From Erysipelotrichaceae bacterium MTC7 (GTDB taxonomy: Bacteria; Bacillota_I; Bacilli_A; Erysipelotrichales; Erysipelotrichaceae), in assembly GCA_001695645.1 (NCBI GenBank), contig LVZN01000078.1:1-32000 (forward strand): a stretch of DNA of 32,000 nucleotides, given 5' to 3'. Positions within the stretch are counted from its first letter, which is position 1. Each line of letters begins with the position of its first letter. Positions 2,915 through 7,635 of the stretch are shown piece after piece. Position numbers and translations under genes: made by a program. The notes beneath the pieces are model-generated. The model worked only from the letters and a program-made list of their open reading frames with translations. It searched no databases and was not told the origin of the DNA.

Positions 2915-3294
2915 AGAATATCGATAGTACATGTGTTGTAAGGGGACACAAAGTATTAGTAAGCCTTCTTTTAATTGAAAAAAATCTATATTGAACTGTG
3001 ACTGTCGTTTAATAGATAAACAAATATGGTCCGTATGAATATCTGTATCATTTTGCATGCATATATTGATGTTTGAAACTATATTAGAGATCAGTTATCA
3101 ATATAACACACGGGCTACAAATTGAAAATAAAGTATATAAAGTGATTCCAGTATGGGTGAGCGACGATATAATGCGAATATATGTGGATAATTTTGAGAG
3201 TATTCAAAACAAAGACTATTAGATAAATTAAAAAAAATTCGTCATAAATTCGTCATAGAATAGGAAAATAGCATAATTTCATAAACAAAGAATA

Positions 3295-4709: not shown

Positions 4710-4737
4710 TTGACAAATATTGTGTATCAACTATAAT
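4710..4737 (+). promoter_or_regulatory. Near-consensus sigma-A promoter on the plus strand, antisense to the neighbouring genes
   Basis: TTGACA (4710-4715), 16 nt spacer, TATAAT (4732-4737). Confidence 0.5.
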
Positions 4738-4837
4738 ATAAGTAGGTCAACTCGTGATGGATATAGCTGGGTTCCCGAATGGGAGTAGATAGTGTTTAAC
4801 TATTTAGAATTCCTTTGCTCCTGGGGTTGACACCTTT

Positions 4838-5812
4838 TTATAAATTGCTTTTTATATGATTCAGAATATTTTCTGGATCTTTTTTTAATTCTTCAAATAT
4901 GAAATTGATTGCCTTGTTTGAGTAAGAATAGCTCGGAGAAGAATGAATTGTGTTCACGTAACAAAAATCAGTCTTTTCTTTTATCTCAAAATGTTTACAA
5001 AAATTCGAAAAATGATAACTGTTAAATTTTGCTTTTTTATTGTCTTTATACGTGAGATAGATTCCTTCTTTTTTTAGTTTTCCATTTATGAGCTCAATAC
5101 ATTTTTTTGTTGTATACGCATGAGTTTTATTAGGGTCTTGTAGTTTATTAATTATTTTAACTCCAGTCTCCGCATTGGCATCTATTTTGACTTTTGAGGT
5201 AGCCTTGCTTTCGCTTTTTGTTATATAGTGGTGGTGATTAATTGAAATTGCAAAGTTAGCATTATTATTTTCACTTAAGTCATCAATATCACCTTTGTTT
5301 TTAAGTAATTTTGTTGCTATTTCTTCTGGATACTTGGCTACAATTTTGCTTTCATCTAACGTTTTCATACTAACAGATAGAGTAAGAAAATTTTGGGGGA
5401 TTATGGTTGTCATATCAATTTCATGAAATTGCTCCATTTTTTCATTAAAGTTTAATACGCAGGCTTGAAACAAAGGGACATAAACCATTTCATATTCCTC
5501 GGTTATAAAGTGTGTACTTGTGTTTCGAAGCTCAATGATTTTTTCAAGATTTCTTCGTAGTGGGTCTTTATCGTTGGTAAAGACTTTTTTAATGCAATTT
5601 TCTAAAGAAATTGTTCTATCTGGATTATCTGTGAAATAAATATTCTCACGTTTGTTCAACATATGGGCCTTTAGCATTAATTCCCATGAATTACATATAA
5701 ATAATGCAAAGCCCTCTACTCTATACCGTATAGTTGGTTTGTTATATATTTCTATAGCCATTTCAAAAGCTTCTACACTTTTTTTGATTAAACGATTTCT
5801 AATATCTTCCAT
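4838..5812 (-). CDS. DUF3644-like protein with an N-terminal HEPN-like Rx4H motif (candidate RNase/abortive-infection effector)
   Basis: N-terminus AIEIYNKPTIRYRVEGFALFICNSWELMLKA matches my recollection of DUF3644. ELRNTSTH gives R-x4-H (codons at 5525-5527 and 5510-5512). Start set to the ATG at 5812, which has GGGAGG upstream. Confidence 0.6.
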   Translation of the reverse strand: MEDIRNRLIKKSVEAFEMAIEIYNKPTIRYRVEGFALFICNSWELMLKAHMLNKRENIYFTDNPDRTISLENCIKKVFTNDKDPLRRNLEKIIELRNTSTHFITEEYEMVYVPLFQACVLNFNEKMEQFHEIDMTTIIPQNFLTLSVSMKTLDESKIVAKYPEEIATKLLKNKGDIDDLSENNNANFAISINHHHYITKSESKATSKVKIDANAETGVKIINKLQDPNKTHAYTTKKCIELINGKLKKEGIYLTYKDNKKAKFNSYHFSNFCKHFEIKEKTDFCYVNTIHSSPSYSYSNKAINFIFEELKKDPENILNHIKSNL

Positions 5813-5822
5813 ATATTCCTCC

Positions 5823-6113
5823 CTATTCCATGTTAATACCATAATCTTGTAGATACTGATCAGCATATGGCATAATCATATCTACTTCTTTTTCACAATC
5901 ATCTTCTGAACTAATATCTGTATTAAAGTGATTCTTTAGTATATGAATTAATTCGTGTTTTAGTGATTGTTTATTTACTTCAATACTGTAATTCCAATTT
6001 AACAAAACATAATAAGTATCTTCTAGTAAGTAACAAAGCCCCTTTGTTGTTTTAGGTAAACAACACCTAGTTACACATATGTTATTTTGTCTACAAAAAT
6101 CCTCGAATCCCAT
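5823..6113 (-). CDS. Minimal ImmA/IrrE-family (M78-like) zinc metallopeptidase
   Basis: HELIH (HExxH) at 5943-5957, preceded by a G....YYVLLN context typical of ImmA/IrrE cores. The ATG at 6113 has GGGAGG at 6122-6127. Its stop lies 10 nt before the next gene start. Confidence 0.65.
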   Translation of the reverse strand: MGFEDFCRQNNICVTRCCLPKTTKGLCYLLEDTYYVLLNWNYSIEVNKQSLKHELIHILKNHFNTDISSEDDCEKEVDMIMPYADQYLQDYGINME

Positions 6114-6170
6114 AAGTATGTACCTCCCCAAGTTATCATACTTGAGAATGTTACATCTATTCTGTACTGA

Positions 6171-6204
6171 TAAATAAAAGGAACAACTCTACTAAAGTTG
6201 TTCC
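6171..6204 (-). terminator. Terminator between the XRE/PemK-like pair and the ImmA-like/HEPN-like pair
   Basis: On the minus strand, GGAACAACT-ttagtag-AGTTGTTCC is followed by TTTTATTTA. Confidence 0.65.
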
Positions 6205-6262
6205 AGTCCGTGGCGTATAGCCTTACTCTTGACATATGTCAGTCCGTGGCGCAATGGCCTTG
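6204..6262 (-). repeat. Two direct repeats with 36-nt period, flanking a 10-bp palindrome
   Basis: CAGTCCGTGGCG..GCCTT occurs at 6204-6226 and 6240-6262: 12 nt are perfect, plus GCCTT after a 1-nt indel. The perfect palindrome GACATATGTC sits at 6231-6240. Confidence 0.6.
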
Positions 6263-6301
6263 TACTAATATAATATCACGAAACGAATATTTGTAAACAA
6301 C

Positions 6302-6799
6302 TTAAAATGTAAAATATTTCTTTATCTCATCATCGATTTTGTTCATATGTAATGGTGGTGCGAGTAAATGAAATAATGGGTCATATTCATTTATAAAAGG
6401 CTTAATTCTAAATTTACTTATCGTTGTAATGTTTTGAATAAGCGCATACGATTGTTTGATTTTAGAATGATAGAAATCTAAATTTTCTTGTAATTTGTCA
6501 GTGACACCTAGTAATTGTGATTTTAAAGCAATCCCTCTATTAAAATCTCGAGCCACTCTTTTTAGATATTCCTCGGTACCTGAATAAACTAAGGCAAATA
6601 TCATATTCTTTAATGGTAGATAATAACGCTTAGATTTAGAACTTAAAGGAATGACTGTAAGGACACCGTTAAAATTTGAGTCCTTTTTAGTTAGGACGAT
6701 AGCAAAATGTATTCCGCTTAATTCATTCCCAACTCCCTTGCCAAAATCCACAGATACTATTTGACCTCTTTTATAAGTTTGATATTTGATTGGTTTCAC
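6302..6799 (-). CDS. PemK/MazF-fold toxin-like protein with a ~50-aa insertion
   Basis: RGQIVSVDFGKGVGNELSGIHFAIVLT...VIPLSSKSK and ALIQNITTISKFRI align by eye to MazF GDLIWVDFDPTKGSEQAGHRPAVVLS...VPCTTQSK and DQVKSIAWRAR. GTG start directly abuts the upstream stop (TAAGTG). Confidence 0.65.
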   Translation of the reverse strand: MKPIKYQTYKRGQIVSVDFGKGVGNELSGIHFAIVLTKKDSNFNGVLTVIPLSSKSKRYYLPLKNMIFALVYSGTEEYLKRVARDFNRGIALKSQLLGVTDKLQENLDFYHSKIKQSYALIQNITTISKFRIKPFINEYDPLFHLLAPPLHMNKIDDEIKKYFTF

Positions 6800-7288
6800 T
6801 TAGTCCATACCTCTTTCAGCTCTTATACCCTTGATGACAGTTAGAATACGCTCCATGTCTTCAGGACTTAGATCCTTTGTTTTATCAAATAATAAGACTA
6901 AATTGTCATTTTCTCGAATAGAGTTATATATTTCTAATAATTCTGGATTGTTCTTTTCTAGATATTCGGTAGTGGGGTTAGATGGCTTGATAATGTCTGA
7001 GAATGATTTGTAATCATCATTTTCTTTATCGTTAAAATCAAAATAGAACATACCTTTGGAAAGTAATTCATCAATATCCAAATCAAGTGCCTTGCATATT
7101 AACTCCAAGGTATCCATGTCTACACGAGATTTACCATCCTCATATCTTTTGAGTGTGCTTTTTGTTTTCACTCCACCGATTGCTTCGCTTAATCGATCCA
7201 AACTTATATCTTTTTCTATTCTACGTTCTTTAAGAACTTTTCCGAGTTGCTTGTACAATTCCATATCAAATTTGTTAAGAGCAGTCAT
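6800..7288 (-). CDS. XRE-family HTH repressor (CI/ImmR-like, no S24 peptidase domain)
   Basis: N-terminal HTH_XRE pattern (LKERRIEKDISLDRLSEAIG...STLKRYEDG). Divergent from a cro-like gene across an operator-rich region. Confidence 0.85.
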   Translation of the reverse strand: MTALNKFDMELYKQLGKVLKERRIEKDISLDRLSEAIGGVKTKSTLKRYEDGKSRVDMDTLELICKALDLDIDELLSKGMFYFDFNDKENDDYKSFSDIIKPSNPTTEYLEKNNPELLEIYNSIRENDNLVLLFDKTKDLSPEDMERILTVIKGIRAERGMD

Positions 7289-7440
7289 GGTCCATTTCCC
7301 CCTTATATAAATGCATTATACCATAAAAATGGTACACTTCAATATAAAAACCATTTTTTTGGCACATTTCTCTTGCAATAAGAAAATCTTTGTTTTATAC
7401 TTTGGATGTGCCACATAAATGGCACATGAAAGGAGAAACA
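7289..7440. promoter_or_regulatory. Divergent promoter/operator switch region
   Basis: Minus strand: TTGAAG (7342-7337), N16, TGgTATAAT (7323-7315). Plus strand: TTGCAA (7373-7378), N17, TATACT (7396-7401). Related 20-bp operators sit at 7318-7337, 7348-7367 and 7408-7427, with consensus roughly GTGCCAtAAAAAtGGCACAc. Confidence 0.7.
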
Positions 7441-7635
7441 ATGGAAGATAAAATCACAGTAAAAGAAGCACGTGAAAAAGCAGGATACTCTATAAGAGAA
7501 ATGGCTGAATTGATGGGTTGGGTTAAAACAACATATGTTAACAAAGAGAATGGAATTAGTAAGTTCTATGTGGATGAGGCAGTAAGATTTAGTAGAATAG
7601 TCAAGGTTCCAATGAGCAATATCATTTTTTTTTGA
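7441..7635 (+). CDS. Cro-like XRE-family HTH protein
   Basis: ITVKEAREKAGYSIREMAELMG is an HTH. AAAGGAG RBS precedes the ATG at 7441. Confidence 0.8.
   Translation: MEDKITVKEAREKAGYSIREMAELMGWVKTTYVNKENGISKFYVDEAVRFSRIVKVPMSNIIFF

Follow-up and report, generated by a model that had tools for sequence, protein, structure and literature searches.

The ToxIN, CptIN and TenpIN loci are type III toxin-antitoxin (TA) systems (Blower et al. 2012, PMC3401426; PMC5086642), and in a C. difficile prophage the non-coding RNA RCd22, in which a motif is present twice, binds AbiF directly and so neutralises it (PMC12373285). Another bioinformatic RNA motif, the pemK RNA motif RF02913, comes from the motif set of Weinberg et al. 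2017 (PMC5737381) and is included in Rfam (bioRxiv 10.1101/2021.11.03.467129); it owes its name to the pemK genes of Firmicutes with which it is associated. Here, we analyse a 32,000-nucleotide stretch of contig LVZN01000078.1 (positions 1 to 32,000; the window, by which we mean this whole stretch) from Erysipelotrichaceae bacterium MTC7, which is the lysogeny region of a prophage. On its minus strand, a gap of 188 nt between a gene for a PemK/MazF-like protein and a small ImmA-like open reading frame (ORF) holds a unit that consists of a promoter-like site, two repeats and a terminator. MazF and PemK are textbook type II toxins, which are neutralised by proteins. The comparison of this unit with its relatives inclines us, on balance, to see in the locus a type III-like TA or abortive-infection module that would combine a MazF-fold toxin with a 3'-encoded, separately transcribed small RNA (sRNA) of two units. 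A preliminary description of the same DNA had proposed an RNA-antitoxin-like unit as well, and its impression of a discrete sRNA gene is retained, in contrast to the ToxIN-like layout and the downstream partner that it assigned to the RNA.

The RNA unit and its partner gene

The PemK/MazF-like gene (6799-6302, minus strand; 165 residues, TAA stop at 6304-6302) encodes the proposed toxin. All coordinates of the sRNA unit given here refer to the minus strand of the window. The gene is followed by the promoter-like site TTTACA-16-TGaTATTAT at 6297-6270, with TTTACA at 6297-6292, the TG of an extended -10 element at 6278-6277, within the 16-nt spacer, and TATTAT at 6275-6270. This site, which matches the consensus at 10 of 12 positions in addition to the TG, had been noticed in the preliminary description after the PemK-like stop, at coordinates (6294-6267) that are off by about 3 nt. 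The start of the sRNA is predicted near A6263. Unit 1, AGUACAAGGCCAUUGCGCCACGGACU, reads AGU-ACAA-GGC-CAUUGC-GCC-ACGG-ACU (6266-6241; stem 6259-6257/6250-6248, loop 6256-6251), and unit 2, AGUAAGGCUAUACGCCACGGACU, reads AGU-AA-GGC-UAUAC-GCC-ACGG-ACU (6227-6205; stem 6222-6220/6214-6212, loop 6219-6215). The two are imperfect copies with a 14-nt linker between them (6240-6228). They share the exact 12-mer CGCCACGGACTG (6251-6240 and 6215-6204, at a spacing of 36 nt), and the AAGGC parts on their 5' sides lie at 6261-6257 and 6224-6220; the direct repeats with a 36-nt period that had been reported are borne out, with the refinement that the period is 36 nt on the 3' side and 37 nt on the 5' side. 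The linker contains a palindrome, GACATATGTC (= GACAUAUGUC; 6240-6231), which is perfect, as claimed, and whose first G (6240) is the last base of the 12-mer CGCCACGGACUG at 6251-6240. The unit closes with an intrinsic terminator at 6204-6172, no less clean than first described, with an 11-bp stem GGAACAACUUU/AGAGUUGUUCC (6204-6194/6190-6180), a 3-nt loop and UUUUAUUU, the U-run occupying 6179-6172.

The repetition is well above chance. Exact direct 12-mer repeats within 13-60 nt occur at only three places in the 32 kb of the window, whereas shuffled sequences have 0.37 on average. Within the RNA body, 13 positions match in the best internal repeat, compared to 5.6 in shuffles, and this value was reached by 0 of 200. 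We are inclined to read 6297-6172 as an sRNA gene that is about 90 nt long and has a promoter and a terminator to itself. The sole other short-range exact direct repeats in the window (12-14 nt; 28822/28864 and 30366/30408, plus strand) lie in late genes with a period of 42 nt each and probably correspond to a repeated 14-residue protein motif. A 54-residue ORF that starts in the palindrome (6235-6071) was discarded: it has no ribosome-binding site, crosses the terminator and is not conserved.

We gathered relatives of the PemK-like protein in 85 protein clusters, 37 GTDB genome loci, 80 metagenome loci and 111 phage records. Almost everywhere, across about 120 related loci, which include prophages from gut Firmicutes, staphylococci and streptococci, the DNA that follows the PemK-like stop carries the same module, that is, a promoter, 50-80 nt that usually contain two hairpin units, and a terminator. 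Many of the relatives have the promoter TTGACA-17-TGnTAnAAT at the equivalent place relative to the toxin stop; in one locus (L057), the promoter lies within the 3' end of the toxin ORF. In a crude scan of 75 non-identical loci from genomes and metagenomes, 73 had a terminator-like hairpin in the scanned region, and in 69 such a hairpin was preceded, at a distance of 45-130 nt, by a promoter-like site. The order repressor, PemK-like gene, sRNA unit, integrase holds in all four phage records that were inspected (S. aureus B236, S. arlettae BM31, S. equi Javan178 and S. agalactiae JX01). The S. aureus version of the sRNA, which contains ACAAGCCGCUGAAAUAUUUGCGGCAAG and ACAAGUCGCUGAAAUAUUUGCGACAUG in phage B236, is at least 98.6% identical across 32 records and is annotated as an RNA in none of them.

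The surroundings of this module are far from constant. Its 3' neighbours include integrases, serine recombinases, tRNAs, typA and genes on the opposite strand. Sufficient upstream DNA was available for 43 distinct toxins; 16 of these lack an upstream ORF on the same strand, and the remaining 27 are preceded by mutually unrelated ORFs, such as CI-like repressors, membrane proteins and glyA. Because the unit after the PemK-like gene is conserved and the flanks vary, the unit belongs with the upstream PemK-like gene, and we consider it highly probable that this gene has its conserved partner in the sRNA gene. The sequence of the sRNA differs between groups of toxin-bearing loci. In 10 of 24 sRNA classes, the likeness of the two units is significant, and the units lie at offsets of 26-38 nt. 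Sequence profiles of the two clades delineated here (A and B, the latter being that of the window) did not recognise the staphylococcal and streptococcal phage versions. The cohesion of this sRNA family is one of position and architecture, not of sequence.

Other RNA genes were observed just beyond the PemK-like/sRNA unit in three loci, namely, the type I TA RNAs RatA and rli28 in Apilactobacillus (L030, 4436-4772), a skipping-rope RNA (L111, 3291-3361), and the S. pyogenes sRNA 779816 on the opposite strand, before int, in phage Javan178 (L120, 2694-2780). The spots beside this unit seem to collect small RNA and TA cargo.

The partner assignment departs from the preliminary description, which, by analogy with ToxIN, had made the repeats an antitoxin or regulator of the ImmA-like and DUF3644 genes downstream. 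The order promoter, repeats, terminator, genes does exist in the window, and there is no strong promoter visible between the terminator and the start of the ImmA-like ORF, which leaves room for read-through. However, taken together with the toxin gene that accompanies the unit elsewhere, the order is toxin, promoter, repeats, terminator, instead of the ToxIN-like promoter, repeats, terminator, toxin. Searches with tblastn for the XRE, ImmA-like and DUF3644 proteins of the window had 0 matches in about 119 PemK-like loci; hence, in none of these loci, which carry the sRNA partner gene, is a relative of either downstream protein encoded. Conversely, in three phages that encode DUF3644 homologues, another gene lies directly upstream of DUF3644 or of the metalloprotease-DUF3644 pair, and two sRNA profiles had no significant match in these phages. 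By these profiles, the repeats are absent beside the homologues, which argues against a downstream partner on the terms that the preliminary description itself had set, and we regard such a partnership as very improbable.

A second alternative is that the region is only the 3' untranslated region (UTR) and terminator of the repressor-PemK operon, with hairpins that stabilise or insulate the message and a promoter match that arose by chance. Indeed, no terminator intervenes between the toxin stop and the units, so that the repressor-toxin mRNA necessarily carries the units in cis as its 3' UTR, and one terminator ends both the sRNA and the XRE-PemK transcript. The window hairpins are also weak, and the promoter match taken alone is unremarkable in such AT-rich DNA (20 promoter-like sites in 3.5 kb, compared to 17.9 expected); it gains weight only because the relatives carry conserved promoters. 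It is in these relatives that the explanation falls short: their promoters are near-perfect and keep their position between the toxin stop and the hairpins, the repeats and their 5' and 3' flanks are conserved beyond the needs of a terminator, and hairpins and flanks differ between the sRNA classes of different toxin-bearing loci. A mere 3' UTR therefore appears decidedly unlikely.

Structure of the RNA and membership of the window copy

A strong structural signal comes from clade A, the sRNAs of which have the form AACAAAGG...CCAUUUGUU, AAUCAAAGGNC...GNCC, followed by the terminator. A covariance model of this clade (R1) recovered 19 members with E values from 1e-8 to 5e-16. In the alignment of these 19 sequences, 95% of the cells are paired, and 14 of the 24 pairs show compensatory changes, a degree of covariation that was reached by 0 of 500 shuffles, with slid controls falling to 37-54% paired; in the terminator, 9 of 10 pairs covary. 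This alignment had been fitted to the model structure, but RNAalifold, applied to an unfitted MAFFT alignment of the clade, still recovered the terminator as well as helix 1, and 9 of the pairs covaried. Likewise, the sRNAs of S. aureus B236 and S. arlettae BM31 differ by four compensatory changes in the stems and keep the loops and the ACAAG and CA flanks. The clade A stems contain G-U pairs, which indicates an RNA on the sRNA strand; on the other strand, these pairs would be C-A mismatches.

These observations bear on the possibility that the repeats act at the level of DNA, as protein-binding or recombination sites near int. Such a role would be in keeping with direct repeats and a palindrome without mismatches that lie near the lysogeny switch and the integrase gene, but the unit always has one orientation with respect to the toxin gene, conserved promoters and terminators flank it, and the stems keep their pairing through compensatory changes and G-U pairs. 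The palindrome itself was not conserved in the relatives. DNA sites are, in our judgement, extremely improbable.

For the window copy, we used an nhmmer profile built from 11 clade B sequences, with the window excluded, to search 64 kb of sequence. The two best matches in the window were units 1 (6262-6243, E = 0.0093) and 2 (6224-6207, E = 0.03), both on the correct strand, and the next-best match in the window had an E value of 1.7. The hairpin of unit 2, GGCTATACGCC (GGCUAUACGCC verbatim), recurs after PemK-like genes in six loci, and that of unit 1, GGCCATTGCGCC (GGCCAUUGCGCC verbatim), recurs after the PemK-like gene in L050 and L051; in all, exact 11- and 12-mers are shared between the units of the window and those of its relatives. 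In L057, CGCCACGAGACUG-type tails are present as in the window, and the terminator begins at the last G of unit 2.

Several results count against this assignment and against a structured RNA in the window. In clade B, the stems are almost invariant, GGC paired with GCC, and for that reason the covariation is not significant there and the evidence for membership of the window copy is weaker. The stems of the window units have only 3 bp of this kind, and the isolated units fold as drawn (unit 1 at -4.0 kcal/mol) no better than shuffled sequences, with z about 0; minimum-free-energy folding of the window RNA body gave no signal. The two-unit covariance model of clade B (R2) reached E values of only 0.28 (6224-6210, local) and 0.86 on the window, probably because the window linker is about 10 nt longer, and the clade A model R1 found clade A members only and not the window element. 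Nevertheless, judging from position, architecture and shared hairpins, the window copy is very likely a member of the sRNA family.

The element does not appear to belong to an RNA family in Rfam. No family of Rfam 15, including RF02913, matched it in the window or in 22 related loci; the scan for RF02913 was made at the gathering score on the window and 20 loci, and at E <= 10 on window positions 6100-6400 and 11 loci, among them the phage loci L119 and L120, which were scanned also at E <= 1. The pemK RNA motif resembles our element in being a bioinformatic RNA motif named for its pemK association, and differs in that its covariance model gives no match here; a conceptual relationship between the two is conceivable. 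Rfam matches to PK-HAV and to snoRNAs (E from 0.06 to 7) fell on the terminator or on AT-rich DNA and were dismissed as chance.

A short RNA that is independently transcribed and terminated and adjoins a toxin gene could also regulate the toxin, or another gene, by base pairing, in the manner of type I or trans-acting RNAs. One of 11 loci, L057, does show strong complementarity to the translation-initiation region of the toxin. In the other 10, the best duplex between the sRNA and the toxin mRNA is no better than with shuffled sRNAs (z around 0), so that there is no excess complementarity of the kind expected for type I TA, and no further site in the window carries the complement of the 12-mer, even if up to two mismatches are allowed. 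The RNA and the toxin gene are read in one direction, without cis-antisense overlap, and the toxin is a 165-residue soluble MazF-fold protein, not a small membrane peptide. Regulation by base pairing thus seems unlikely. The complementarity in L057 to the region around the start codon of the toxin (2420-2509 versus 3074-3132; z of -3.5) may be due to chance or may represent a clade-specific second layer of control.

The MazF-like protein and the antitoxin model

The label PemK-like, under which the upstream ORF was first described, is borne out by sequence similarity. The protein matches the Pfam family PF02452 (PemK_toxin) with E = 7.6e-10 over the N-terminal 50 residues, its sole Pfam match at E <= 0.1, and PHROG 1412 with E = 2e-45; a profile search of the PDB yielded MazF9 with E = 0.002. 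An AlphaFold2 model computed from 26 homologues has a predicted local distance difference test score (pLDDT) of 87. The best 50 Foldseek matches listed for this model in the PDB are all structures of MazF/PemK-family toxins, including the MazF proteins of S. aureus, B. subtilis, M. tuberculosis and E. coli, as well as MoxT and YdcE, with a best E value of 1.8e-5 and a template modelling (TM) score, on the target, of about 0.73. The predicted fold is that of MazF, with an inserted two-helix hairpin at residues 66-111. Across the family, which comprises 766 clusters at 50% identity (E <= 1e-10), residues E26, H31, S54 and K55 are invariant, the latter two within the motif PLSSK. Most members have 230-300 residues and a conserved N-terminal helical extension of 50-70 residues (EKIRLDKSYNNYHKII..LPYKFSYLDEWLLKKSKLL), which the 165-residue protein of the window lacks. 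PADLOC gave no match for the PemK-like protein, having no model for this family.

The names under which the family circulates are at odds with this fold. In PHROG 1412 and in many RefSeq phage records, the protein is called 'antitoxin mazE-like', and in one record 'repressor protein'. Given that the former name contradicts the MazF fold, it looks like a propagating mis-annotation. The protein shares its fold and family with the toxins of the type II systems MazEF and PemIK, and differs from them in the 45-residue helical insertion and, in most relatives, in the N-terminal extension. It differs also in its genomic company: a search of the related loci for a conserved MazE- or PemI-like protein antitoxin gene adjacent to the PemK-like genes found none. 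Taken together, a MazF fold, no conserved protein antitoxin, and an accompanying sRNA that varies by group make an RNA antitoxin that acts on the protein the best explanation of the locus.

The proposed mechanism runs as follows. The RNA would act as a type III-like antitoxin of the MazF-like protein, its two units, each with a 5' ACAA-like flank, a short GC stem, a loop of 5-6 nt and a CA-rich 3' flank, occupying the RNA grooves of the dimer and thus holding it inactive as pseudo-substrates. The presence of two units per RNA would fit the two-fold symmetry of the MazF dimer. ACA is the core of several MazF recognition sites, and many of the units start with ACAA, a flank that is not universal; this suggests a pseudo-substrate. 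A strong separate promoter would supply the RNA in excess, the units being present also in cis in the 3' UTR of the repressor-toxin message. When transcription collapses, for example, because a phage infects the cell or the prophage is lost, the RNA, being labile, would decay and the stable toxin would be set free, which would result in abortive infection or addiction. We infer expression, binding, neutralisation, toxicity and the trigger, and that the RNA is an antitoxin that acts by direct binding is an evenly balanced proposition.

The type III systems offer both the closest likeness and clear differences. With ToxIN, CptIN and TenpIN, the module has in common a toxin whose structural class is Kid/MazF-like, a short non-coding partner RNA that contains repeats and is delimited by a terminator, a repeat period of about 36 nt, and a location on mobile elements, where those systems have a role in abortive infection. 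Type III antitoxins are recognised by at least two repeats of about 34-45 nt; the window has two imperfect units with a period of 36-37 nt and a linker, in contrast to the head-to-tail tandem repeats of these systems. Its toxin belongs to PF02452 rather than to the ToxN/AbiQ, CptN or TenpN families, and the RNA lies downstream of the toxin gene with a promoter-like site of its own, as it does in the relatives. Because of these differences in toxin family, position and promoter of the RNA, and arrangement of the units, the module is not a member of ToxIN, CptIN or TenpIN. The AbiF-RCd22 system is likewise similar in combining a prophage toxin with an adjacent two-motif non-coding RNA that was first known as a bioinformatic motif, and dissimilar in that AbiF is an Abi_2/HEPN-like protein and its RNA is unrelated to ours in sequence and structure. 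By analogy, the module would work like ToxIN, CptIN, TenpIN and AbiF-RCd22, outside those families.

Some features of the locus sit uneasily with an RNA antitoxin of a MazF toxin. The catalytic Arg of MazF (for example, in 'QRPAVV' of MazF-mt9) aligns to the invariant H31 ('kHFAIVL') of the family, and with this replacement of Arg by His, RNase activity is no more than plausible and toxicity is putative; catalysis may depend on other residues than in MazF, or RNA may be bound and left intact. In no characterised type III system does the RNA come after the toxin gene and have a promoter to itself. In the window, the XRE protein, the gene of which abuts the toxin gene, could in principle be a local protein antitoxin. 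Furthermore, the phage units sit directly upstream of int, and a role in the lysogeny module is conceivable.

The last of these features, together with the replacement of Arg by His in the protein, raises the alternative that the RNA serves the MazF-like protein as cofactor, guide, sensor or substrate, by which the protein would be activated or targeted, or that the RNA takes part in lysogeny control, such as the expression of int. The linkage of the RNA to the protein would be explained equally well as under the antitoxin model. Yet the unit is present where no int follows, for example, in L005, L009, L014 and L015, and an active MazF-fold protein that has no protein antitoxin needs some form of neutralisation. 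We deem these other roles of the RNA improbable.

Prophage setting and implications of the module

The genes around the module are those of a lysogeny region. Upstream, the XRE/CI-like repressor gene (7288-6800, minus strand) is divergent from a Cro-like gene (7390-7635, plus strand), and the GTG start of the PemK-like gene adjoins the stop of the repressor gene; the PemK-like protein is 100% identical to A4S06_05195. The sRNA unit thus sits in the repressor operon, near int, a position that is typical of prophage exclusion and TA morons. In the lambda cI-rexAB operon, exclusion genes are likewise found in the prophage repressor operon: as in our locus, a defence or toxin module is co-transcribed with the repressor between the repressor and int. 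The proteins are unrelated, and cI-rexAB has no RNA component.

Downstream of the terminator, the small ORF of 102 residues (5823-6131, minus strand; ATG at 6113) retains only part of its original ImmA-like label, in that its match to Peptidase_M78 is weak and below the threshold, and the HELIH motif is present. The next gene (5866-4838, minus strand), previously described as HEPN-like and of 325 residues, encodes a protein of 342 residues with DUF3644 and an EC042_2821 restriction-endonuclease-like domain, and is followed by the integrase gene (4563-3430, minus strand). The 342-residue protein has matches to PDC-S19 (E = 1e-139), a candidate defence family in PADLOC, and to PHROG 9605. A metalloprotease-DUF3644 pair is present also in Flavonifractor phage Chenonceau, so that the small ImmA-like ORF may be the partner of the 342-residue protein; in other phages, the DUF3644 gene lies directly 3' of a cI-like repressor gene or an endolysin gene. 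Between int and the 3' end of the DUF3644 gene, on the plus strand (4710-4842), there is a perfect sigma-70 consensus promoter, TTGACA-16-TATAAT (12/12), and the roughly 95 nt that follow it close with a GGUCAAC/GUUGAC stem and a U-run, converging on the DUF3644 gene. This segment may be a second small RNA gene; it has no Rfam match, and its folding z-score is -1.2.

Outside the PemK-centred comparison, the lysogeny module of the window had no match among phages by megablast, and single-protein scans of IMG/VR with the PemK-like and 342-residue proteins found no match. The one exact double-repeat match in IMG/VR (L001, UViG_3300031965_000069) was rejected as an unrelated coding tandem repeat of 12 nt: at 6830-7560 of that locus, the window 12-mer recurs many times by chance in a coding tandem array (…GACTGCGCCACC…).

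Our searches of the full-text literature, a coverage that leaves out most subscription journals, brought to light no PemK/MazF toxin for which an RNA antitoxin has been described. Tentatively, and with a little less than even confidence, we propose a new type III-like TA or abortive-infection family in which a protein of the MazF/PemK fold (PHROG 1412) would be neutralised by a 3'-encoded, separately transcribed two-unit sRNA instead of a protein. Temperate phages of S. aureus, streptococci and gut Erysipelotrichales would widely carry this family between repressor and integrase, where it has been mis-annotated. GenBank and PHROG label the protein 'antitoxin mazE-like', and the RNA is unannotated there. 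The module is present in well-studied S. aureus phages, namely, 85, 92, phiMR25, B236 and SA12/13, in which it may act in superinfection exclusion or prophage maintenance, with a bearing on phage therapy and on annotation. If the proposal is true, RNA control of a sizeable MazF/PemK subfamily, that of the 766 clusters, would blur the boundary between type II and type III systems, add a type III-like family with an inverted gene order, and account for the 'orphan' MazF-like genes in prophages.

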